NCBI GenBank assembly: GCA_027293415.1
Contig: JAPUFX010000066.1
Coordinates: forward strand, 9,779-73,778
DNA: 64,000 nucleotides
Source of the DNA: Candidatus Methylomirabilota bacterium
GTDB taxonomy: Bacteria; Methylomirabilota; Methylomirabilia; Methylomirabilales; CSP1-5
Reading direction: 5' to 3'
Part shown: piece by piece, positions 9,733 through 64,000 of the stretch
How the letters are laid out: the number at the start of each line of letters is the position of its first letter
How positions within the stretch are numbered: position 1 is the first letter of the stretch
Notes under the pieces: model-generated
What the model was told of the DNA's origin: nothing
Databases searched by the model: none
Seen by the model: the letters and a program-made list of their open reading frames with translations, nothing else
Position numbers and translations under genes: made by a program

Positions 9733-9801
9733 TCTGCAGCCAGTAGCCAGCTTGGGGATCCAAAAGCTGACTGCCGAAAGCTGATGGCGGACAGCTGCCA
9801 G
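9733..9801. repeat. Heptad inverted repeat, class B (GCTGAYR words)
   Basis: Left arm ctgcagccagtagccagctt, right arm aagctgactgccgaaagctgatggcggacagctgccag. The inner helix is CAGCTT/AAGCTG. Confidence 0.6.
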
Positions 9802-10207: not shown

Positions 10208-10212
10208 GATGA

Positions 10213-10290
10213 GTTCAGGGTTGAGAGTTCAGCGTTCAGAGCTTGGGAGCTTCGGTTCTGCTCTGAACCATGAACCGTGAACTGTGAACC
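10213..10290. repeat. Heptad inverted repeat, class A (GTTCAGR words)
   Basis: Left arm GTTCAGG GTTGAGA GTTCAGC GTTCAGA GC. Right arm GC TCTGAAC CATGAAC CGTGAAC TGTGAAC. The inner 9 bp pair perfectly. Confidence 0.8.
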
Positions 10291-10304
10291 CCGGAGGGAA
10301 GTCG

Positions 10305-10500: not shown

Positions 10501-11055
10501 ATGAGTGTGCATACGTTAGAACAGAAAGAACAACGGTGGTACGTGGTTCACACCTACTCGGGGTTCGAGAGCAAGGTCAAGTCGAGCATCGAGCAGAGGG
10601 CGACTACCCTGGGCCTCCGAGAAAAAATCTCGGAAATCCTGATCCCCACCGAGGATGTGGTTGAACTCAAGAAGGGGAAGAAGCGAATCGCGTCCCGCAA
10701 GTTCTTTCCCGGTTACGTCCTTATCCGGATGGAGATGTCAGATGATTTGTGGTACCTGGTCCGCAGCACCCCAAAGGTGACCGGGTTTGTCGGACCCGGG
10801 ACCCGGCCCATCCCCATCCCCGAGGAGGAAGTTGCTCACATCCGCCAGCAGGTGGAGGAAGGCGCGGAGAAGCCCAAGCATAAGGTCCAGTTTGTACGGG
10901 GCGAGGCGGTCCGGGTCATTGATGGTCCCTTTACCAACTTCACCGGCATCGTTGACGAGATTAGACCCGAGAAGGGACGGCTCAAAGTTATGGTAAGCAT
11001 CTTTGGTCGACCCACGCCGGTGGATTTAGAGTTTTTGCAAGTGGAGAAAGTATAA
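10501..11055 (+). CDS. nusG: Transcription termination/antitermination factor NusG
   Basis: WYVVHTYSGFESKV NGN domain and a KOW C-terminus. ATG 10501 comes directly after the secE stop. The track start 10465 overlaps secE. Confidence 0.93.
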   Translation: MSVHTLEQKEQRWYVVHTYSGFESKVKSSIEQRATTLGLREKISEILIPTEDVVELKKGKKRIASRKFFPGYVLIRMEMSDDLWYLVRSTPKVTGFVGPGTRPIPIPEEEVAHIRQQVEEGAEKPKHKVQFVRGEAVRVIDGPFTNFTGIVDEIRPEKGRLKVMVSIFGRPTPVDLEFLQVEKV

Positions 11056-11062
11056 AGAAAAG

Positions 11063-11138
11063 CAGTCAGCAATCAGCCGTCAGCGACCAGCAAGATCAAG
11101 AGGAAATTCAGTGCTGACAGCGGACTGCTGATGGCTGG
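11063..11138. repeat. Heptad inverted repeat, class B
   Basis: Left arm CAGTCAGCAATCAGCCGTCAGCGACCAGC. Right arm GTGCTGACAGCGGACTGCTGATGGCTGG. Confidence 0.75.
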
Positions 11139-11150
11139 AGCAGGGCGACA

Positions 11151-11576
11151 ATGGCGAAGAAAGTCGTGGCAATGGTGAAGCTGCAAGTCCCGGCAGGCAA
11201 GGCGAATCCTTCTCCGCCGGTAGGTCCGGCCCTCGGGCAGCACGGTGTGAACATCATGGAGTTCTGCAAGGCCTTTAACGCAAAGACCCAACAGCAAGAG
11301 GGGCTGATCATCCCGGCGGTGATCACCGTCTATGCCGATCGTTCTTTTACCTTTATCACCAAGACCCCGCCCACCTCTATCCTGCTGAAGCAAGCTGCGG
11401 GGATCGCGCAGGCCTCTAAGGAGCCGAACCGGGTCAAGGTAGGAAAGGTGACTCGGGCCCAGGCACAAGAGATTGCCAAGACCAAGCTCCCGGACCTCAA
11501 TGCTAATTCCCTCGATGCGGCTGTCCGGATCGTGGAGGGAACGGCCCGGAGCATGGGAATCGAAGTCGTTCCATGA
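11151..11576 (+). CDS. rplK: 50S ribosomal protein L11
   Basis: 141 aa. [34 protein letters not shown]. Confidence 0.97.
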
Positions 11577-11579
11577 ATA

Positions 11580-11744
11580 CAGCTATCAGCTGTCCACTGT
11601 CCGCAGAGAACAGCTGGAAGGCCAGGAGGCTGGGACGCTAGAACACGAGAACGGGTGGATGCCGAATTCCTTGTTTGGGTTCGTGCTTTCCAGCTTACGA
11701 GCGTTCTAGCATCCCAGCAGTTTATTACGGACTACTGATAGCTG
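11580..11744. repeat. Nested long-range inverted repeat with class B words in the rplK-rplA spacer
   Basis: Outer pair cagctatcag (11580-11589) with ctgatagctg (11735-11744). Inner pair gctgggacgctagaac (11629-11644) with gttctagcatcccagc (11703-11718), 15 of 16 complementary. Confidence 0.7.
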
Positions 11745-11766
11745 GCAGCTTTGCTGGAGGAAAGGG

Positions 11767-12477
11767 GTGGCGCAGCACTCGAAGCGATTTGCCAAGGCGG
11801 TGACGACGGTGGCGGAACGGGCGCCGCAGCCCGTCGACCTCAAGACAGCCATCTCTGTGCTCAAAGCGGTGGACTCGGCCAAGTTCAACGAGACCATGGA
11901 GGTAGCGGTGCGTCTCGGCGTGGACCCGCGGAAGGCCGATCAGATGATCCGGGGGACGGTAGTCCTTCCGCACGGGACCGGCAAATCAGTCCGGGTTCTG
12001 GTCTTTGCCAAGGGAGAAAAGGAAAAAGAGGCGCAGGAGGCAGGGGCCGACCTCGTGGGTTGCGAGGATCTGATGGAGAGGATTCAGCAGGGGTGGTTGG
12101 AATTTGACCGGGCCATTGCCACGCCTGATGTCATGGGCCAAGTGGGGAAGTTGGGAAAGATCCTGGGTCCCCGGGGGCTCATGCCCAACCCCAAAACAGG
12201 GACGGTCACCTTTGATGTCGGCCGAGCGGTCAAGGAGTTTAAGGCGGGCAAAATCGAGTACCGGGTGGATAAGGCCGGCATTATCCATGCCCCTTTTGGG
12301 AAGGTCTCTTTCTCGGAGGATCAACTGACGGAGAACGCCGCCGTCCTCCTCGAGGCCCTGGTCCGGGCAAAGCCCCCGACGAGCAAGGGGAAGTTCCTCA
12401 AAGCAATTTCCATCTCTTCGACGATGGGGCCGTCGGTTCAGGTCGACGTAGGCACCATTTCCGGGGGAGCCAAGTAG
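11767..12477 (+). CDS. rplA: 50S ribosomal protein L1
   Basis: 236 aa. GTG start after GGAGGAAAGGG. Typical L1 sequence. Confidence 0.96.
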
Positions 12478-12525
12478 GCGGTCGCAGCGGAGAGCCGCGG
12501 AGGCCTCGAACGAGTAGGGAGAGAA

Positions 12526-13071
12526 GTGATGGTTCGGGTATCAGCAAGGCGCCAGGCACGGGTAGAAGAAGTCGAGCGACTGAAGGAGAGGTTTCGGGAC
12601 GCTAAGAGTATGGTCCTGACCGATTATCGGGGCCTGACGGTCGCCGAAATCACGGCGCTCCGGCGTGCGCTGCGTGAGGCCTCTGCTGAATACCGAGTCG
12701 TGAAGAATAGCCTGGCTCAACTCGCCGCTCAAGAGTTGGGGATCGAAGAGCTTGAGCGGTACTTGAAGGGACCGACAGCCGTGGCCTTCGGCTCAGGGGA
12801 TCTGGTGGCGACGGCCAAAATCCTGACTGCCTTTTCCAAGAAGGCTCCGGTCCTTCAAGTAAAGGTGGGAGTCGTGGATGGCCAGCTCCTACCACGGGAA
12901 GAGGTTCTGGCCATGACAGAGCTTCCACCTCGCGAGGTGATGCTGGCCCGTCTCTTGGGGGTCATGGCGGCCCCGCTCAGCGGTCTCGTCACCGTGCTGT
13001 CCGGCTCTCTCCGGGGGCTTGTGGTCGGCTTGGATCAGGTCCGGCAGAAAAGAGAGGGGATCGAAGGATGA
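12526..13071 (+). CDS. rplJ: 50S ribosomal protein L10
   Basis: 181 aa in the position between rplA and rplL. Start is GTG 12526 or ATG 12529. Confidence 0.93.
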
Positions 13072-22862: not shown

Positions 22863-24941
22863 GTGACGGTTAAGGTAGCCAAGGATCGCATTCGAAATAT
22901 CGGGATTATGGCCCACATCGATGCGGGGAAGACGACCACCACCGAACGCGTCCTTTACTATACCGGGAGGACGCACCGAATGGGCGAGGTGGATAGCGGA
23001 TCCGCAGAGATGGATTGGATGGAGCAGGAGAAAGAGCGAGGGATCACTATCACGTCCGCCTCCACCACCTGCTTCTGGCGCGATTATCAAATCAATATTA
23101 TCGATACCCCAGGGCACGTCGACTTCACTGTAGAGGTCGAGCGGTCGCTCCGGGTCCTGGACGGGGCTGTGATGATCTTCGATGCGGTTGCTGGGGTGGA
23201 ACCGCAGTCAGAGACGGTCTGGCGGCAGGCGGACAAGTATCACGTGCCTCGCGTCGCGTTCGTCAACAAAATGGACCGGGTTGGGGCTGACTTCTTCATG
23301 TCGGTGGGGTCCATCGCCGAGCGGCTCGGGGCGCATCCAGTGCCGATGCAGCTCCCACTAGGACAGGAGGCGAGCTATGCTGGCGTCATCGATTTGATCC
23401 GGATGCAAGCCATCGTCTGGGAGGAGGAGTCCTTAGGGGCCGAGTTTCAGATGAGAGAGATTCCTTCGGAGTGTACGGATCAGGCCCTGCAGTACCGCGA
23501 AAAGCTCCTGGAGGCGGTCGCGGAACAGGACGAGTCCTTGCTTCGCAAGTATGTCGAGGGGCGGGAGATCTCGGAACAGGAAATTCGGGCGGCGATCCGT
23601 AAGGCAACATTGGCCCTGAAAATCACACCGGTCATCTGTGGGGCCTCTTTCAGAAATAAGGGAGTTCAACCCTTGCTGGACGCGGTTGTGGATTATCTAC
23701 CCTCGCCCGTGGATCTCCCTCCGGTCACCGGGGTGAATCCCAAGACGGGTGAGGAAGAGAAACGATCGCCGGTCGATGAGGAACCACTGGCCGCTTTGGC
23801 CTTCAAGCTCGTGGCTGACCCCTACGTCGGTCAGCTCTGTTATTTTCGGGTGTATTCCGGAACCATGGAGTCCGGCACCTCCGTCTATAATCCCACCAGG
23901 CGGGTTCGAGAACGGATCGGCCGCCTCCTCCGAATGCACGCCAACAAGCGCGAAGAGGTGAAGAGCGTTCAGGCGGGGAACATCGCCGCTGCCGTCGGCC
24001 TGAAAAGTGCCAAGACGGGTGATACCCTGTGCAATGAAGGTCACCAGATCTTGCTTGAGGCCATTGAGTTTCCGACGCCGGTCCTTTCGGTGGCCATCGA
24101 GCCCAAGACCAAAGAGGGGGCCGAAAGACTTTCCCTCGCACTTCAGGCCTTGGCCAATGAGGATCCCACGTTCCAGACCCGGGGGGACGAGGAGACCGGC
24201 CAGACCATCATTTCTGGCATGGGAGAACTTCACCTCGAGATCATCGTGGATCGCCTCCTCCGGGAGTTCAAGGTGGAAGCCAACGTCGGGCGGCCTCAGG
24301 TGGCTTACCGCGAGACCATCACGCGTCCAGTCGAGGTGGAAAAGAAGTTCGTCCGGCAGACCGGAGGCCGGGGGCAGTACGCCCATGTCTACCTTCACGT
24401 GGAGCCCCAGCAGGCTGGGAGTGGCTTTCGGTTTGAGAAGAAGATTGTGGGAGGGGCGATCCCCCGGGAGTTCATCCCGGCAGTAGAGAAGGGGGTCCGG
24501 GAGGCAGCCGAGAGCGGGATGCTGGCCGGCTATCCGGTGGTCGACATCACGGTGACGCTGACCGACGGATCCTACCATGAGGTAGACTCCTCCGATCTGG
24601 CGTTCAAGATTGCCGGCTCCATGGCTTTCAAGGACGCGGTAAAGCAGGGCCACCCGATCCTCCTCGAGCCGGTGGTGCAGGTGGACGTTGTGGTGCCGGA
24701 GGAGTTTCTCGGCGAGGTGATCAGGGATTTGAACTCTCGGCGGGGTCGGGTTGTGGGGATCGAGACGCGGCCGGCGGCTCGGGTTGTGCGGGCGGAGGTT
24801 CCCCTGGCTACCATGTTTGGTTACGCAACCGATATGAGGTCGGCAACCCAGGGCCGGGCAACCTACACCATGCAGTTCGCTCGCTACGAGCCGCTCCCTG
24901 GAAGTCTTGCCGAGGAGATCATGGGGCGGGTGGCCAGTTGA
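22863..24941 (+). CDS. fusA: Elongation factor G
   Basis: 692 aa. [14 protein letters not shown] and NKMD motifs. Sits in the str-operon position. Confidence 0.97.
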
Positions 24942-25052: not shown

Positions 25053-25361
25053 ATGGAAGCGGAACGGATTCGGATACGGCTGAAGGCTTACGACCACCGG
25101 ATTTTGGATCAGTCCGCGAAGGAGATCGTAAGCACGGCCGAGCGAACAGGGGCAGGGGTTTCGGGACCTATTCCCCTTCCGACGAAGATCAGCCGGTACA
25201 CGGTCCTCCGCTCCCCGCACGTGGATAAGAAGTCGCGGGAACAGTTTGAGATCCGCATTCATGTCCGCCTTTTGGATATCCTGCGGCCCACGCCTCAGAC
25301 GGTGGATGCCCTCATGCGGTTGGACTTGCCGGCGGGGGTTGATGTTGAAATCAAACTCTAG
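25053..25361 (+). CDS. rpsJ: 30S ribosomal protein S10
   Basis: 102 aa. [14 protein letters not shown]. Confidence 0.97.
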
Positions 25362-25362
25362 T

Positions 25363-25452
25363 GTCCACAGTCCAAAGTCCAAGGTCGAAAAAGAGCAAAA
25401 CACCTGGTGACTTTGGACGTTGGACATTGGGCATCAGACAGACGTTGGACAT
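25363..25452. repeat. Heptad inverted repeat, class C (GTCCAAN words)
   Basis: Left arm GTCCACA GTCCAAA GTCCAAG GTC. Right arm GACTTTG GACGTTG GACATTG, plus an extra GACGTTGGACAT at 25441-25452. Confidence 0.8.
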
Positions 25453-26818: not shown

Positions 26819-27102
26819 GGGAGCCGCACCAGATCGTCCGTCGACCTGTTGTGACCGAGAAGGGGACGGCCCTGAAAGAGCATAACAAGTACCTCTTTGA
26901 GGTGGATCGGCGGGCCAACAAGGTCCAGATCAGACAGGCGGTGGAGGCCCTCTTTAACGTAAAGGTTGCCGCCGTCCATACCGTGGCCATGCGAGGGAGA
27001 GTGAAACGCCTCGGGCGATTTGTGGGACGCACCTCAGATTGGAAGAAAGCCATTGTAACCCTCAGCGAGGGGCACAGCATCGAGCTCTTTGAAGGCGTTT
27101 AG
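26815..27102 (+). CDS. rplW: 50S ribosomal protein L23
   Basis: 95 aa. ATGA overlap with the rplD stop. Confidence 0.95.
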   Translation: MREPHQIVRRPVVTEKGTALKEHNKYLFEVDRRANKVQIRQAVEALFNVKVAAVHTVAMRGRVKRLGRFVGRTSDWKKAIVTLSEGHSIELFEGV

Positions 27103-27186
27103 CAACTGGCAATCTGCTGTCTGCTATCTAGCTCTTCTCAAGGAAATGTTGACTGCTGATGGCTGACAGCTGGCAGCTGAAGAGCG
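27103..27186. repeat. Heptad inverted repeat, class B
   Basis: Left arm GCAACTG GCAATCT GCTGTCT GCTATCT AGC. Right arm GCTGATG GCTGACA GCTGGCA GCTGAAG AGC. Starts directly after the rplW stop. Confidence 0.75.
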
Positions 27187-31837: not shown

Positions 31838-32023
31838 GTGGCAAAAAAAGCCCTCGTGGTGAAGGCGCAGCGGGCGCCAAAGTTTCGGGTGCGGCAGTAT
31901 CACCGGTGTCGGATCTGTGGCCGCCCCCGGGGCTATCTCAGACGGTTCGCCATGTGCCGGGTCTGCTTCCGGCACTTGGCCCTCCGGGGAGAGGTTCCCG
32001 GTGTTGTCAAGGCCAGTTGGTAA
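31838..32023 (+). CDS. rpsZ: 30S ribosomal protein S14, type Z (zinc-binding)
   Basis: 61 aa. [20 protein letters not shown]. Confidence 0.95.
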
Positions 32024-32030
32024 CTTGCCA

Positions 32031-32117
32031 GTTCAGAGTTCATGGTTCACAGTTCAGGGTCGGGTGAGCACGATGACCTTGTACAAGTCCCTGAATCATG
32101 CACCGTAAACCCTGAAC
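32031..32117. repeat. Heptad inverted repeat, class A
   Basis: Left arm GTTCAGA GTTCATG GTTCACA GTTCAGG GTC. Right arm CCTGAAT CATGCAC CGTAAAC CCTGAAC. Confidence 0.8.
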
Positions 32118-32128
32118 GGAGTAGCTCA

Positions 32129-32524: not shown

Positions 32525-32528
32525 CGAC

Positions 32529-32597
32529 AGTCCGACGTCCACAGTCCAAGGTCCAACGTCGGTAATGGGAAAGGTCCTGTGACTTTGGACTTCGGAC
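32529..32597. repeat. Heptad inverted repeat, class C
   Basis: Left arm AGTCCGAC GTCCACA GTCCAAG GTCCAAC GTC. Right arm GGTCCTGT GACTTTG GACTTCG GAC. Confidence 0.8.
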
Positions 32598-32614
32598 CCT
32601 TTAGGGTGATTACG

Positions 32615-37308: not shown

Positions 37309-37602
37309 ATGCGCAAGAGGTCCGCTGGACAGCGCAGAAAGAGGTCCGCTGGACAGCGCAAAAAGAAGTCCGCTGGACAAACCCAAAAGAAGGAAGAGGC
37401 GATCGAGGTCGAAGGGACCGTGGTCGAGCCCTTGCCGAACGCCATGTTTCGGGTGGAGTTCGAGACGGGCCACAAAGTGCTGGCCCACATATCGGGGAAG
37501 ATGCGGATGCATTTTATCCGGATCCTCCCGGGGGATAAAGTTATTGTGGAGCTCAGTCCCTACGATCTGAGCCGAGGTCGCATCATTTATCGCCATAAGT
37601 AG
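37309..37602 (+). CDS. infA: Translation initiation factor IF-1 with a repeat-encoded basic N-terminal extension
   Basis: ATG 37309 after AGGAGGT. The conserved core is [68 protein letters not shown]. It is preceded by [28 protein letters not shown]. No in-frame start lies closer to the core. Confidence 0.9.
37315..37386 (+). repeat. 24-bp tandem repeat x3 inside the infA 5' coding region
   Basis: Copy 1: aagaggtccgctggacagcgcaga. Copy 2: aagaggtccgctggacagcgcaaa. Copy 3: aagaagtccgctggacaaacccaa. Confidence 0.9.
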
Positions 37603-37604
37603 TT

Positions 37605-37677
37605 GTCGGCTGTCAGCAGTCCGCAGTCAGCTTTGACCCGCGATAGTAATTGCTGACAGCTGATGGTTGACAGCAGG
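37605..37677. repeat. Heptad inverted repeat, class B
   Basis: Left arm GTCGGCT GTCAGCA GTCCGCA GTCAGCT. Right arm GCTGACA GCTGATG GTTGACA GCAGG, running into the rpmJ SD AGGAGG. Confidence 0.8.
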
Positions 37678-37685
37678 AGGCTGAA

Positions 37686-41334: not shown

Positions 41335-41561
41335 GGTCTCCTCCTGTCTTCAGCGGGGGTCAAACGATCTGCGGGGTGCTTTGCTGGTGGATTTCTACCA
41401 CCGTGTTGGGCGTGGACAAGGTACCAGGCAGGAGTCACCCGCGTCAAGGCAAACATGGTTTTAATTTTTCCCTTTACACCACGACAGGCTGTGTGCTACC
41501 TAGAAGCCCGGGGATTTCCTGCCTGCATCATCAGGTGATGCTGATCATGGGGGGGGATTCC

Positions 41562-43649
41562 ATGAAGGCTTACGAAATCACGCAGATCCGGAATGTGGGG
41601 ATCGTTGCCCATGGACAGGAGGGAAAGACCTCCTTGACGGAGGCAATCCTCTTTGACACCGGGGCGCTGACCCGCCTTGGACGAGTAGAAGAAGGGAATA
41701 CCGCGACCGACTTTGACGAGGGTGAGATCAAGCGGGGGATCAGTATCAGCTCGGCCGTCGCCTTCTGTGAGTGGAAGGGGGTCAAGGTGAATCTCATCGA
41801 TACCCCCGGCTTCTCCAACTTTCTTCCCGACACCCGGATGTGCCTGCGCGTGGCGGATATCGCCCTCATCCTGGTCAGTGCGGTGGACGGGATCAAGGTC
41901 CAGACAGAAAAGGTCTGGGGATATGCGGAGGAGTATGGCCTGCCGGGTGTCTTCTTTGCGAACAAAATGGATCGGGAACGGGCGGATCTTTTTCGTACGG
42001 TCGAGGATATTCGAAAAGGCTTGCATCCCGCAGCCATCCCCTTGCAAATCCCCATAGGGGCCGAGGCTGGCTTCCGCGGGGTGGTGGATCTGTTGGCGAT
42101 GAAGGCGTACACCTTCCAGACCGACGGATCGGGAAAGTTCAAGGAGGAGGAGATACCGGCCGAGCTCAAGGACCGGGCGGGAGAGCTCCAGCATACGCTC
42201 GTTGAGGCGGTGGCGGAGTCGGAAGATAGCTTGCTTGAGCGCTATCTCGAGAGTGGCACGCTGAGCCCCGAAGAGCTGCGGACCGGCATCCGACGGGCTA
42301 TCGCCGCCAGGAAACTCTTCCCCGTCCTTTGCGGGTCGGCGTTAAAGAACATCGGCATCCAGCCTCTACTCGATGTCTTAATCGATATCTGCCCCTCTCC
42401 CTTGGATCGGCCGCTGGTGGAGGGAAAAGACACGAAGTCAAAGGAACGGGTTTCACGGGAGGCGCGGCCAGATGCACCGCTCACGGCGTTGATCTTTAAG
42501 ACCATTGGGGATCCTTACGCCGGCAAGATCAGCGTTTTCCGGGTGTATGCCGGCCGACTGAGTACCGATAGTAGTGTGTATAACGCCGTCAAAGAGACGA
42601 GAGAGCGGATCGGACAGGTATCGCTCCTTCGGGGAAAGCACCAGGTCCCCGTCGACGAAGTGGGCCCGGGAGACATCGGAGCTGTGGTAAAGCTGAAGGA
42701 GACTAGTACAGGGGATACGCTTGCCGACGAAAAATCTTCCATCCTGCTCGACCCCCTCCCTGTGCCCACACCCCTGATTTCTTACGCCATCGCTCCCAAG
42801 TCCAAAGGAGATGAGGAAAAACTGTCTGGGGCCTTAAGCCGCCTCCTGGAAGAGGACCCTAGCCTTAAGGTGAGCCGGGACCAGCAGACCAAGGAGACCA
42901 TTATCTCCGGAATGGGGAAGGTCCACTTGGAGGTGGCGGTGGAACGACTCAAGCGGAGGTTCGGCGTAGACGTCGCCATGAAGACCCCTCGTGTACCGTA
43001 CAAGGAGACGATCCGGGGGACCGCCTCCGTGCAGGGGAAATACAAAAAACAAACGGGGGGCCGTGGACAATACGGCGACTGCTGGATCAAGCTCGAGCCC
43101 ATGCCGCGGGGTGAGAAATACGAATTTGCCAATCAGATCGTCGGCGGGGTGATCCCCAGACAATACATCCCGGCCGTGGAGAAGGGGGTCGTGGAGGCGA
43201 TGGAACGAGGGGTCTTGGCCGGCTATCCCGTGACCGGCGTCAAGGTGAGCCTCTATGATGGATCGTTCCATTCAGTGGACTCTTCGGAGATGGCCTTTAA
43301 GATCGCCGGCTCCATGGCCTTGAAGAAGGGGGTTCAACAGGCCACCCCCATCCTTCTCGAACCGATTATGGCGGTCGAGGTGAGCGCCCCCGACGATGCG
43401 ATCGGGGATGTGATCGGCGATCTCAATTCTCGGCGGGGGCGGGTCATGGGGGTAGAGGGCAGGAGCAAGGGCCAGGTCATCAAGACGCTCGTCCCTCTCG
43501 CGGAAATGCTGGAGTATGCCCCCCAGCTGCGTTCCCTGACCGCAGATCGGGGAGACTACACCATGGAGTTTTCGCATTACGAGGAAGTTCCGGCCCACAT
43601 CCAGGAAAAGCTGGTGGCCGAGGCCAAGCAGGAAGAAAAAGGGGCCTAA
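41562..43649 (+). CDS. Elongation factor G paralog (EF-G2-like translational GTPase)
   Basis: ATG 41562. 695 aa with G motifs AHGQEGKTS, DTPGF and NKMD, and EF-G domains II-V. Clearly diverged from the str-operon fusA. The track start 41376 is a spurious extension. Confidence 0.85.
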   Translation: MKAYEITQIRNVGIVAHGQEGKTSLTEAILFDTGALTRLGRVEEGNTATDFDEGEIKRGISISSAVAFCEWKGVKVNLIDTPGFSNFLPDTRMCLRVADIALILVSAVDGIKVQTEKVWGYAEEYGLPGVFFANKMDRERADLFRTVEDIRKGLHPAAIPLQIPIGAEAGFRGVVDLLAMKAYTFQTDGSGKFKEEEIPAELKDRAGELQHTLVEAVAESEDSLLERYLESGTLSPEELRTGIRRAIAARKLFPVLCGSALKNIGIQPLLDVLIDICPSPLDRPLVEGKDTKSKERVSREARPDAPLTALIFKTIGDPYAGKISVFRVYAGRLSTDSSVYNAVKETRERIGQVSLLRGKHQVPVDEVGPGDIGAVVKLKETSTGDTLADEKSSILLDPLPVPTPLISYAIAPKSKGDEEKLSGALSRLLEEDPSLKVSRDQQTKETIISGMGKVHLEVAVERLKRRFGVDVAMKTPRVPYKETIRGTASVQGKYKKQTGGRGQYGDCWIKLEPMPRGEKYEFANQIVGGVIPRQYIPAVEKGVVEAMERGVLAGYPVTGVKVSLYDGSFHSVDSSEMAFKIAGSMALKKGVQQATPILLEPIMAVEVSAPDDAIGDVIGDLNSRRGRVMGVEGRSKGQVIKTLVPLAEMLEYAPQLRSLTADRGDYTMEFSHYEEVPAHIQEKLVAEAKQEEKGA

Positions 43650-44212: not shown

Positions 44213-44217
44213 TGTCA

Positions 44218-44280
44218 GTCTAAGGTCCAACGTCCAAGGTCCAACGGTACGGCACCATGTAACATAGACGTTGGACCTTT
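44218..44280. repeat. Heptad inverted repeat, class C
   Basis: Left arm GTCTAAG GTCCAAC GTCCAAG GTCCAAC GGT. Right arm GACGTTGGACCTTT. Confidence 0.78.
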
Positions 44281-58390: not shown

Positions 58391-58513
58391 GGGGCGGTTC
58401 GGGAAAGGCCTCCTCATCGTCCTCTCCTCCCTCCGAGGTCGGCCTTCCCCTCACCGCTGACGCGGTACTAGCAGCGGTCCACTTGAGGCATTGGAGTAAT
58501 TGGAGTAATTTGG

Positions 58514-58536
58514 TGACAGCTGATCGCTGACAGCTC
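58514..58536. repeat. Class B word run (single arm) before purS
   Basis: tgacagc tgatcgc tgacagc tc, immediately upstream of the purS SD GGGAG. The 9-nt tandem ttggagtaa x2 at 58491-58508 lies next to it. Confidence 0.5.
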
Positions 58537-61745: not shown

Positions 61746-63044
61746 ATGAAGACCATCAATATCGGCCTCGTGGGTTTCGGGACGGTCGGAGTCGGGGTAG
61801 TGAGGCTGTTCCAGGACCAGGCCGTGCTGCTCGAGCGACGTGTGGGGGCGCGACTCCTGGTCAAGCGGATCGCCGATATCGACCTCGCGAGGGTGCGAGA
61901 CGTGGAGGTGGATCCTAATGTCCTTACCTCGGATGCGCGAGAGGTCACCGAGGATAAGACAATCGACATCGTGATCGAGCTCATCGGGGGTACCACAGTG
62001 GCTCGCGACGTGGGGCTTGCGGCGCTGAGGAATGGGAAGCACTTGGTCACGGCCAACAAAGCCCTCCTCGCCACCCACGGCCTCGAGCTGTTTAGGGCAG
62101 CGGCCGAACACCGAGTCGATTTAGGATTTGAGGCCAGCGTCTGCGGCGGGATCCCGATCATCCGGGCGGTCCGAGAGGGTCTCGTTGCCAACCGAATCCT
62201 CTCCATTACCGGAATTGTGAACGGTACCTGCAACTATATCCTCACGAAAATGACGGAACTTGGAGCTCCGTTCGCAGAGGTCCTCGAAGAGGCCCAGGTC
62301 AAGGGATACGCCGAGGCAGATCCGTCGCTTGACATCGACGGCATTGATACTGCCCACAAGCTCCAGATCCTCGCCTCGATAGCCTATGGGGGCACCGTGG
62401 ACTTTGATGCCATCCATATCGAGGGGATCCGCGAGGTCGACCCCGCGGATATCCAGTATGCAAAGGAGCTGGGATACCGGATCAAGCTGTTAGCCATCGC
62501 CAAAGAGGCCGATGGCAAGGTCGAGGTACGGGTTCACCCCACCTTGGTCCCCGAAGACCACCTGCTTGCCCCAGTCGGGGGGGTCTATAACGCCGTCTAT
62601 ATCGTGGGTGACGCCACCGGATCCTTGATGTTTTCCGGAAGGGGAGCCGGGCAGATGCCGACGGCCAGCGCCGTCGTCAGCGACGTTGTCGAGATCGCCC
62701 AGAACATCCTCCATGGGCGCCCGTCGAGACCATCGCATGTCCGTGAGATCGCCGGTGAGGGCTTGAGGATTCGACCCATGGAGCAGGTCCGGACCCGGTA
62801 CTACCTGCGGGTGATGGCTGTCGACAAGCCGGGAGTTCTCTCAAAGGTCTCGGGGATCCTTGGAGAGCACGACATCTCTATCGCTTCAGTGATCCAGAAG
62901 GGGCGGCATGCCAAAGCAAGTGTCCCAGTCGTCATGATGACCCACGAGGCGGTGGAGGGAGCGATGCAAAAAGCTCTTGGAGGGATCAAGGCCCTCGATG
63001 CGGTGACGGGGAAGACGATCTGCATCCGTGTCGAGGAAGCCTGA
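61746..63044 (+). CDS. hom: Homoserine dehydrogenase
   Basis: 432 aa. NAD-binding N-terminus GLVGFGTVG, catalytic domain and a C-terminal ACT domain. Confidence 0.94.
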   Translation: MKTINIGLVGFGTVGVGVVRLFQDQAVLLERRVGARLLVKRIADIDLARVRDVEVDPNVLTSDAREVTEDKTIDIVIELIGGTTVARDVGLAALRNGKHLVTANKALLATHGLELFRAAAEHRVDLGFEASVCGGIPIIRAVREGLVANRILSITGIVNGTCNYILTKMTELGAPFAEVLEEAQVKGYAEADPSLDIDGIDTAHKLQILASIAYGGTVDFDAIHIEGIREVDPADIQYAKELGYRIKLLAIAKEADGKVEVRVHPTLVPEDHLLAPVGGVYNAVYIVGDATGSLMFSGRGAGQMPTASAVVSDVVEIAQNILHGRPSRPSHVREIAGEGLRIRPMEQVRTRYYLRVMAVDKPGVLSKVSGILGEHDISIASVIQKGRHAKASVPVVMMTHEAVEGAMQKALGGIKALDAVTGKTICIRVEEA

Positions 63045-63047
63045 TAA

Positions 63048-63158
63048 GTTCACGGTTCAGAGTTCAGAGTTGAGAGTGCAGAGTGCAGAGTTCAGGGAAA
63101 GGATAACACCTTTTTTTTGCTGTTTCAGCGCTGAACCCTGAACCATGAACCCTGAACG
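63048..63158. repeat. Heptad inverted repeat, class A (largest copy)
   Basis: Left arm GTTCACG GTTCAGA GTTCAGA GTTGAGA GTGCAGA GTGCAGA GTTCAGG. The centre contains a T8 run. Right arm GCTGAAC CCTGAAC CATGAAC CCTGAAC. Confidence 0.85.
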
Positions 63159-63162
63159 AAGT

Positions 63163-64000
63163 ATGGAGTTTGGCGTGAGGTGGCACGGCGTTATACATCG
63201 GTATCGGGATTATTTACCGGTGACGGAAAAAACCCCAGTAATCACCCTCCAGGAGGGAAACACCCCCCTGATTCGGGCGGACCGCCTCGGGGAAGCCCTG
63301 GATTCCCGGGTTGAGCTCTTTCTGAAGTTCGAAGGTGCGAATCCCACCGGTTCCTTCAAAGACCGCGGGATGACAGTTGCCATCAGCAAAGCGTTGGAAG
63401 AAAAGATGACCGCGGTCGTCTGCGCCTCTACGGGGAACACCTCCGCTTCGGCTTCCGCGTACGCCGCCCGGGCCGGGTGCCGTGCCTATGTCGTGGTCCC
63501 CAAGGGCAACGTCGCCATGGGGAAGATCTCGCAGGCCCTGGTGCACGGCGCGAGGCTCATCCCGCTGCAGGGCAACTTCGACGAGGCCTTCGAGATCGTC
63601 AAGGAAATCTCAGAAAAGTATCCGGTCGCCTTGGTCAATTCGATTAATCCCTTCCGCATCGAGGGGCAGAAGACGGCTGCTTTCGAGGTCTGCGAGCAAC
63701 TCGAGAGAAGCCCGGACCGTGTGTTTATCCCGGTCGGAAATGCCGGGAATATCAGCGCGTACTGGAAGGGCTTTCGGGAGTACCGAGAGGCGGGACGGAT
63801 TCAGGGCCTTCCCCGGATGATTGGCTGGCAGGCTGAGGGGGCCGCGCCGATAGTGCGAGGAGCGGTGGTGAAGCATCCCGAAACGGTCGCGTCGGCGATT
63901 CGCATCGGCAACCCCGCCAACTGGTCTATGGCGCGGGCAGCCATCGAAGAGTCCCAGGGGGAGATCGGGCTCGTGTCGGATGCCGAGATCCTCGACGCCT
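63163..64000 (+). CDS. thrC: Threonine synthase, 3' end outside window
   Basis: Frame 1 is open to the window end, so it is absent from the ORF track. Hand translation gives [36 protein letters not shown]...[15 protein letters not shown], including the PLP-Lys motif. GTG 63175 is an alternative start. Confidence 0.9.

Follow-up and report, generated by a model that had tools for sequence, protein, structure and literature searches.

The spacer between rplK and rplA in a Methylomirabilota (NC10) genome contains a compound palindrome of periodic words, in which a hairpin of tandem octamers is nested within a hairpin of tandem heptamers. The outer layer is one member of a family of word hairpins that occupy intercistronic spacers in the same DNA, while the inner layer is present once and is strongly conserved in a related genome. 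We consider this structural and evolutionary description very probably correct. The account as a whole, in which the palindrome would also act within the rplK-rplA intercistronic mRNA by looping itself out, has in our estimate about an even chance of being right. The architecture of the spacer is unusual and apparently undescribed, with a conserved core and a narrow distribution.

Results

The window, by which we mean the whole 64-kb stretch of DNA that was analyzed, comes from a Methylomirabilota genome whose nearest species-level relatives are named Methylomirabilales or NC10. Genes are found in the order tuf, rpmG, tRNA-Trp, secE, nusG, rplK, rplA, rplJ, rplL, rpoB, and the rplK-rplA spacer is 190 nt long (Table 1). 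An identical L1 protein is encoded on 22 public contigs, where the gene order is conserved; the species is also represented by 10 public contigs with identical gene calls, in which the spacer is either unchanged or differs by one SNP, at 11611 or 11614.

Table 1. Coordinates of the rplK-rplA element, its surroundings and related hairpins in the window
Feature	Position	Strand	Details
rplK leader hairpin (companion element)	11062-11141	+	heptamer words; fills the nusG-rplK spacer (11056-11150)
rplK	11151-11576	+	
rplK stop codon	11574-11576	+	TGA; outer helix begins 3 nt downstream
Outer 5' arm	11580-11595	+	CAGCTATCAG (11580-11589) plus GTCC (11592-11595); within heptamer-word array 11575-11608
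Two small local MFE hairpins	11597-11625	+	11597-11613 and CUGG-AAGG-CCAG 11614-11625
Inner 5' arm	11613-11652	+	five tandem octamers: GCTGGAAG GCCAGGAG GCTGGGAC GCTAGAAC ACGAGAAC
Inner stem, 5' strand	11629-11644	+	GCTGGGACGCTAGAAC; words 3 and 4
Apical core	11653-11678	+	GGGTGGATGCCGAATTCCTTGTTTGG; no word structure
Inner 3' arm	11679-11718	+	five tandem octamers: GTTCGTGC TTTCCAGC TTACGAGC GTTCTAGC ATCCCAGC
3' block	11695-11727	+	approximately AGCGTTCYAGSATCCCAGCAKTTTATTRC
Inner stem, 3' strand	11703-11718	+	
Outer 3' arm	11729-11744	+	GGACTACTGATAGCTG; within heptamer-word array 11723-11751
rplA Shine-Dalgarno (SD)	11754-11764	+	GGAGGAAAGGG; SD plus GTG start, 11754-11769
rplA	11767-12477	+	GTG start at 11767
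Further family sites (a)	9773-9801, 10208-10298, 11056-11141, 25352-25444, 27098-27184, 32020-32125		
Further family sites (b)	32527-32611, 37598-37680, 44213-44279, 58505-58535, 63041-63187		

A nested palindrome of octamer and heptamer words

A first-pass annotation of the window had proposed that the spacer folds into a nested long-range structure, and both of the pairings that it named are present: 11580-11589 is complementary to 11735-11744 at 10/10 positions and 11629-11644 to 11703-11718 at 15/16. An inverted-repeat search returned the inner pair as 16 nt with 94% complementarity and the outer pair as 11580-11595 / 11729-11744 (16 nt, 88%), that is, the perfect 10/10 pairing plus GTCC/GGAC. 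When the spacer was shuffled with dinucleotides preserved, a 16-nt inverted repeat with no more than one mismatch never arose (0/1000) and a perfect 10-nt inverted repeat arose in 13/1000 shuffles. The + strand RNA has a predicted folding energy of -80.6 kcal/mol (z -3.94), a stability equaled by none of 200 shuffles, and its minimum free energy (MFE) structure holds exactly the outer and inner helices. The - strand folds at -79.9 kcal/mol (z -6.75), so that on both strands the spacer folds far better than shuffled controls. Since the two strands fold equally well, the element is a palindrome at the DNA level without strand preference, and folding does not in itself demonstrate a role at the RNA level. 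A further complementarity inside the inner stem, gaacacgagaac with ggttcgtgc, exists but is weak (8/9 with one bulge). At its right end the structure is separated from the rplA SD by 9 nt.

Both layers are built of tandem words. In the outer arms these are heptamers (CAGCTAT CAGCTGT CCACTGT ... / ... ACGGACT ACTGATA GCTGGCA; consensus CAGCNNN and complement), and with period-7 autocorrelations of 0.68 and 0.54 in the two arms the class B words that had been reported at both ends of the spacer are real. The inner arms consist of octamers (consensus GCYRGRAS and complement) with period-8 autocorrelations of 0.69 in the 5' arm and 0.65 in the 3' arm (over 11676-11720), neither of which was reached in 2000 shuffles. 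In the inner 3' arm the words of the 5' arm recur as reverse complements, though in scrambled order, and as a consequence the best fold pairs words 3 and 4 with the last two 3' words. Words 1 and 2 self-fold in this structure (CUGG-AAGG-CCAG), and the hairpin that they form at 11614-11625 is what the register shift leaves over; an alternative, competing pairing is also present (11612-11622 / 11685-11695). The suggestion that the spacer might hold a composite repeat element thus found support, in the form of an octamer-word hairpin nested in a heptamer-word hairpin.

Apart from the inner arms the 64 kb contain no period-8 array, and neither a pattern search allowing 3 mismatches nor blastn-short found a second copy of the inner element there. 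Other repeats noted in the window were a 24-nt unit (AAGAGGTCCGCTGGACAGCGCAGA) present three times in tandem at 37315-37386, with copies 96% and 75% identical to the first, and a 300-nt direct repeat of 69% identity (24432-24731 vs 43125-43424). The copies of the latter lie within ORFs of 692 aa (22863-24941) and 757 aa (41376-43649) and are probably paralogous domains.

A family of heptamer-word hairpins in intercistronic spacers

The window contains 17 period-7 arrays, as against 1-3 arrays each for periods 4, 5, 8, 10 and 11, and nearly all of the 17 are arms of intergenic hairpins. Their words fall into three classes (CAGCNNN, GTTCANN and GTCCANN); class A and class C words each keep a constant orientation relative to transcription in 3/3 cases. 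With the outer stem of the rplK-rplA element included, the family has at least 10 members in intercistronic spacers of the window, ranging in length from 58 to 165 nt. Each of the nine other word spacers forms one long imperfect hairpin (z -2.2 to -4.7). The + strand folds better in five of the 10 hairpins, the - strand in three, and the two strands equally in two, rplK-rplA among them. Members have words in common and not sequence, identity within the family being 72-88% over 25 nt.

The hairpins fill their spacers and only the SD is left over. Measured from the upstream stop codon, the nine intercistronic hairpins (counting rplK-rplA) have their 5' base at -7 to +9 nt, and none of the 10 hairpins has its 3' base more than about 22 nt from the start codon that follows. 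Most are found inside ribosomal-protein and translation operons, each ending before the next SD, and the genes that follow them include rplK, rplA, rplC, rplB, rpsH, rplF, rpmJ, nusA and secE. We found no description of spacer hairpins made of degenerate 7- or 8-nt words for NC10 bacteria in the literature searched. In an NC10-like contig labeled Sulfotelmatobacter (L015) the nusG-rplK spacer holds a hairpin of another heptamer word at about 1080-1150 (GCGGAAT / complement ATTCCGC), an observation suggesting that the habit of writing hairpins in words may reach more distant Methylomirabilota with other vocabularies.

Conservation of the inner element and turnover of words

The clearest view of constraint comes from L011, a relative whose L1 protein is 88% identical to that of the window. 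Leaving aside a single word indel in each (8 nt and 7 nt, respectively), the two genomes share 95% identity over the inner 114 nt and 97% over the nusG-rplK leader hairpin, the latter being the value also found for the tRNA-Trp gene. By comparison, third codon positions are 70-78% identical (about 72% as the yardstick for the leader), five other spacers 56-71%, the outer arms 68-78%, and the tuf-rpmG and tRNA-secE word spacers 56-65% with many gaps. Six substitutions were seen in the inner 114 nt where, at a neutral divergence of roughly 27%, about 30 would be expected. The best conserved part of the inner element is its non-repetitive apical core, in which there is one difference, at 11658, and the 20-mer 11659-11678 is identical. 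Recombination as the source of this identity was considered and argued against, given that the coding sequence on either side shows no such rise. L091 and L104 are as distant from the window as L011 at third positions; here the leader is 82% and 60% identical, respectively, and the 3' block 73% and 87%. As far as sequence comparison can tell, the pattern implies a lineage-specific element that is probably under constraint in one sub-lineage. Its absence from relatives as close as L011 (L091, L102 and L104) means that any function would have to be dispensable or very young.

Partial versions of the element occupy the same site in a graded series of relatives. The rplK-rplA spacers of L013 and L014 (L1 74% identical) measure 10-17 nt. 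Among relatives with 83-86% identity in L1, three (L012, L092 and L094) have a hairpin of about 107 nt made of heptamer words only and a fourth (L096) has a spacer of merely 43 nt. At 88-89% identity, L102 has a 72-nt heptamer hairpin (heptamer-only hairpins span 72-108 nt overall), and L091, L103 and L104 have a recognizable inner 3' arm resembling AGCGTTCYAGSATCCCAGCAKTTTATTRC without the 5' octamer arm. The full inner element is present in L011, L098 and L100, in each case with one additional octamer. The core 20-mer was found exactly in three metagenome contigs, always at rplK-rplA; they represent a close strain with an extra octamer (GACGCTAG), and in two of the three an A-to-G change makes the inner stem perfect. 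Graded partial versions at one site point to evolution in place, and we read the outer layer as an older hairpin common to a family-level clade and the inner layer as one that arose in place at its apex.

Change has proceeded by whole words. Relative to the window, indels are +8 nt in L098, L100 and L011 and +7 nt in the L011 leader, the last being an extra heptamer (TGCTGAC) in the 3' arm, and the words of L011 pair in another register than those of the window. Fold z values of orthologous spacers run from -4.0 to +0.6 (L011 -1.5, L104 -0.5, L091 +0.6). Among six variants placed on the proposed structure one compensatory pair was seen, a result that is not significant, being matched by 87/500 shuffles. 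An alignment of the outer stem across the whole clade was given up, the pairing partners and registers not being the same from one lineage to the next.

A side observation concerns the rplA end of two of these loci. L011 (2730-2765) and L012 (1882-1913) have a small hairpin that pairs with the rplA SD (UUCUGA-GAGAAAG-UCGGAGG and CUUCCGA-GACGAAG-UCGGAGG, respectively); the corresponding segment of roughly 11 nt is lost or lacking in the window, where the SD is predicted to be free. A 405-aa L1 match (P0002) was considered as an L11-L1 fusion and rejected in favor of an unrelated duplicated or chimeric L1.

Search for an L1 operator

The first-pass annotation had also raised the possibility of a relocated L1 operator. 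The element (11580-11744) does lie between the rplK stop codon ending at 11576 and the rplA start at 11767, but "relocated" would be the wrong word for an operator there: Cyanobacteria, Actinobacteria and Chloroflexi normally have their L1 site immediately in front of rplA, Firmicutes have one of their two sites there (Fu et al. 2013, PMC3616713), and dual L1 sites are known (PMC3616713; PMC10931766). Rfam returned only tRNAs for the 64 kb at the gathering score and nothing relevant for the region 10900-12700 at E values up to 10. The lack of an L1 leader match is itself uninformative, since in a control with Rfam 15 the Firmicute loci that match an L1 motif descriptor gave no L1 family at the gathering threshold either. 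Rfam likewise gave no L10_leader match in the rplA-rplJ spacer, a family that was detected in the Bacillota/Clostridia loci L029 and L047; this spacer (12478-12528) is only 51 nt long and there is no obvious separate rplJ leader in the lineage of the window.

The descriptor was derived from the E. coli leader, three Firmicute spacers and the M. vannielii site. It calls for (i) a closing stem of 3-12 bp; (ii) a 5' GA/AA bulge after G; (iii) a second stem starting with G; (iv) a 3' internal loop G...A of 5-8 nt and (v) a closing strand starting with C. It recovers the E. coli site (GGG-GA-GCCUCU..AGAGGC-GUUAUUA-CCC), four Firmicute sites (L024, L029 and two in L067) and that of M. vannielii; the sites recovered go beyond those of the derivation by the Megasphaera leader site. 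In its strict form it found no match in the leader or rplK-rplA spacer of the window or in the NC10 relatives, and a relaxed scan gave 1 match vs 2.6 in shuffles. Local alignment of the elements to E. coli 23S 2093-2196 scored at the shuffle expectation (with E. coli as the only reference), and for the whole E. coli 23S molecule, the L1 stalk and the L11-binding region all alignment scores fell within the shuffle distribution. Four strings put forward as rRNA mimics (GGAGGCU, GGACGCYAG, GCCAGGAKGYUGG and GGUGGAUGCC) were rejected as chance-level matches. Also rejected was a switch in which anti-SD-like CUUUCC/AUCCC would alternate between the SD and SD-like 5' words, as the predicted unpaired probability of the rplA SD stayed at 0.58-0.71 in all folding scenarios tried, whether or not the 5' arms were masked.

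Known L1 mRNA sites resemble the present case in location, in the occurrence of a second conserved structured element before rplK and in being structured RNA near an SD. They are, however, hairpins of an irregular kind that measure roughly 30-40 nt and imitate 23S H77/H78 by means of a GGRAG bulge motif (PMC3616713), whereas the rplK-rplA element is a 165-nt nested hairpin of tandem words with neither a GGRAG motif nor similarity to E. coli rRNA. The proposal of a relocated L1 operator is thus not supported, and the element is no L1 operator of the canonical kind. In the rplK-rplA spacers of four Gemmatimonadota loci (L044, L045, L071 and L083) we noted a common block just before rplA, ACCACCC..GAGCCGCCAG..GGUGGGAGG..GCCGGCUCG. 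This block contains an L1-site signature, GGUGGGAGG, in an arrangement that falls outside the descriptor, and judging by this resemblance it is a possible variant L1 operator.

Discussion

An older heptamer hairpin (CAGCNNN and complement) fills the rplK-rplA spacer throughout the family-level clade, and a second hairpin, of octamers, has grown at its apex in the lineage of the window. A tentative scenario that accommodates the geometry of the spacer is as follows. On the polycistronic mRNA the outer helix would loop out the 165-nt insert; with the rplK stop codon 3 nt before the base of the helix and the rplA SD 9 nt after it, the two would be held close together and the SD would stay single-stranded. 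A long untranslated gap would in this way be kept compact, coupling of rplA to rplK translation would be preserved and exposure to Rho and nucleases would be limited. We infer this coupling and compaction mechanism from geometry; it is offered tentatively, and we think it somewhat more apt to be wrong than right. The conserved inner hairpin probably contributes a further function that is lineage-specific and depends on sequence, for example as a binding platform or as a processing or stability site for some factor, and the conserved rplK leader may likewise serve a sequence-specific factor.

It is conceivable, although rather unlikely, that the palindrome is instead a functionless by-product of slippage or template switching, which make palindromic arrays that would be tolerated because they fold on themselves; the nested structure would then be one array expanded inside another. 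Several of our observations are in keeping with such an origin, namely the whole-word indels that distinguish close strains, the register shifts and scrambled word order, the wide span of fold z values in orthologous spacers (-4.0 to +0.6), the lack of covariation and the tuf-rpmG and tRNA-secE word spacers being just 56-65% identical to those of L011. Slippage debris accounts in this way for the dynamics of the words but not for identities to L011 of 95% in the inner element and 97% in the leader, where third positions stand at 70-78%. It is also at odds with the non-repetitive apical core being conserved best, with the precise placement of hairpins between stop codon and SD at nine intercistronic spacers and with the orientation of class A and class C words, which relative to transcription is constant in 3/3 cases each. 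Insertion of a MITE or REP-like mobile palindrome, with the 16-nt inner arms as its terminal inverted repeats, might seem to be suggested by the way such repeats bound a 90-nt unit and by the presence of the inner element in some close relatives and not in others. We consider it extremely improbable and largely refuted, the element being single-copy in the window and its core 20-mer confined to rplK-rplA in the metagenomes. Furthermore, the flanks (ccaggag / agtttat) show no target-site duplication, the arms consist of octamers in tandem and vary by word indels where a mobile element would have fixed termini, and the relatives carry graded partial versions at the same site.

An independent small gene in the spacer, either an sRNA on one of the strands or a 16-codon ORF running from ATG 11659 to TAG 11709 (MPNSLFGFVLSSLRAF), is likewise very improbable. 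The stronger fold z of the - strand (-6.75) would fit the former and the only three-state site of the core, 11679 (G, C or T), which is a synonymous Gly third position, would fit the latter. Against an sRNA, we found no promoter-like site on either strand of 10900-12000 and no terminator-like site in that interval (GCAGCUUUGCUGGAGG follows the outer 3' arm), and there was no Rfam match at E up to 10. As for the ORF, it lacks an SD at the proper spacing, in L011 its TAG stop has become TGG and is read through, its third positions are far too conserved for constraint on a protein only, and the core with its ATG is absent from L091, L103 and L104; it is unlikely to be a gene. A further alternative is that the inner element and the rplK leader form a pair of non-canonical operators that bind L1 (or L11) and repress translation, an arrangement comparable to the dual L1 sites known in Firmicutes, Thermus and Thermotoga. 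The two elements occupy exactly the positions of known L1 sites (PMC3616713; PMC10931766) and are the only noncoding segments of the region that are conserved like tRNA against L011. In addition, two words of the 5' arm (CCAGGAGG and CUGGAAGG) are SD-like and resemble GGRAGG, and in the 3' flank AGUUUAUUAC is reminiscent of the loop GUUAUUA in the E. coli operator. The last of these likenesses fades on inspection, as AGUUUAUUAC reads as a degenerate heptamer word and is AGUUGAGUG in L091; masking of the 5' arm leaves the SD unoccluded; and the motif lacks its closing helix, for which CUGG would be expected after the 3' loop. Moreover, the strict descriptor finds nothing and its relaxed form falls below shuffles, similarity to the E. 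coli L1 stalk or L11-binding region does not go beyond shuffles, and the element is missing from equally close relatives. Position and conservation are what speaks for a non-canonical L1 or L11 operator, and we judge the pairing of the two elements as such operators distinctly unlikely.

A broader proposal, which we think quite improbable, is that the word hairpins serve as operators for a dedicated system of post-transcriptional control in the Methylomirabilales lineage of the window. In translation operons the relative output of the cistrons would then be governed by an RNA-binding protein that reads the repeats, or by a double-strand-specific nuclease, acting through 7-nt word classes before rplK, rplA, rplC, rplB, rpsH, rplF, rpmJ, nusA and secE and through an 8-nt class at rplK-rplA only. 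The rplK leader and the octamer element would together form the lineage-specific replacement for autoregulation by L1.

There is precedent for several features of these hairpins. Intercistronic processing hairpins are known from the RNase III site in the E. coli rplL-rpoB spacer and from the phage T7 R-sites, and REP/BIME elements have roles in mRNA stabilization. Like hairpins of the RNase III type, the element in the window is a long imperfect double-stranded hairpin between cistrons of a translation/transcription operon; it has no sequence relation to them. The likeness to REP/BIME elements (PMC3733652) is that of imperfect palindromes situated in intergenic regions, within operons and at many sites per genome, for which mRNA stability and operon polarity are plausible roles. 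REPs, however, have units of 20-40 nt that carry a conserved tag (GTAG or CGTC) and recur in near-identical form (PMC3733652), whereas the hairpins of the window measure 58-165 nt, have a 7- or 8-nt periodicity and site-specific sequence, and carry neither tag; their copies are not near-identical and the inner element is single-copy.

Among published systems, the closest counterpart is the tandem heptamer found before start codons in Beggiatoaceae and cyanobacteria (PMC4679880). Such repeats comprise the cyanobacterial STRR and TAACTGA, the latter in Beggiatoaceae, Cyanobacteria and Bacteroidetes (MacGregor 2015, PMC4679880). As in STRR/TAACTGA, the words of the window are 7-nt tandem units that lie in intergenic regions directly before start codons, also within ribosomal-protein operons, and that differ in copy number among relatives; the role of STRR/TAACTGA is thought to be post-transcriptional (PMC4679880). 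The outer arms of the rplK-rplA spacer fit this description, being tandem 7-nt units in an intergenic position near a start codon. STRR/TAACTGA themselves are near-exact direct repeats of one heptamer and are predicted to be unstructured (PMC4679880), whereas in the window the words are degenerate, at least three heptamer classes and one octamer class occur, and each array is paired with an inverted array to give a long imperfect hairpin. With an inner period of 8, degenerate words and inverted pairing, the arrays of this spacer are a variant of tandem heptamer repeats and not the same repeat.

If the palindrome proves to be nothing but slippage debris, it will serve as a warning that in such genomes strong folding z-scores do not on their own indicate a regulatory RNA. 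If the loop-out mechanism is true, it shows how a 165-nt insert fits between ribosomal-protein genes that are normally coupled while stop codon and ribosome binding site stay adjacent. The analysis also exposes a genome-wide style of spacer, in which hairpins are written in degenerate 7- or 8-nt words. Finally, to our knowledge no ribosomal leaders have been described in the phylum Methylomirabilota, and the sharply conserved rplK leader and inner element are concrete candidates for a new ribosomal-protein regulatory RNA.
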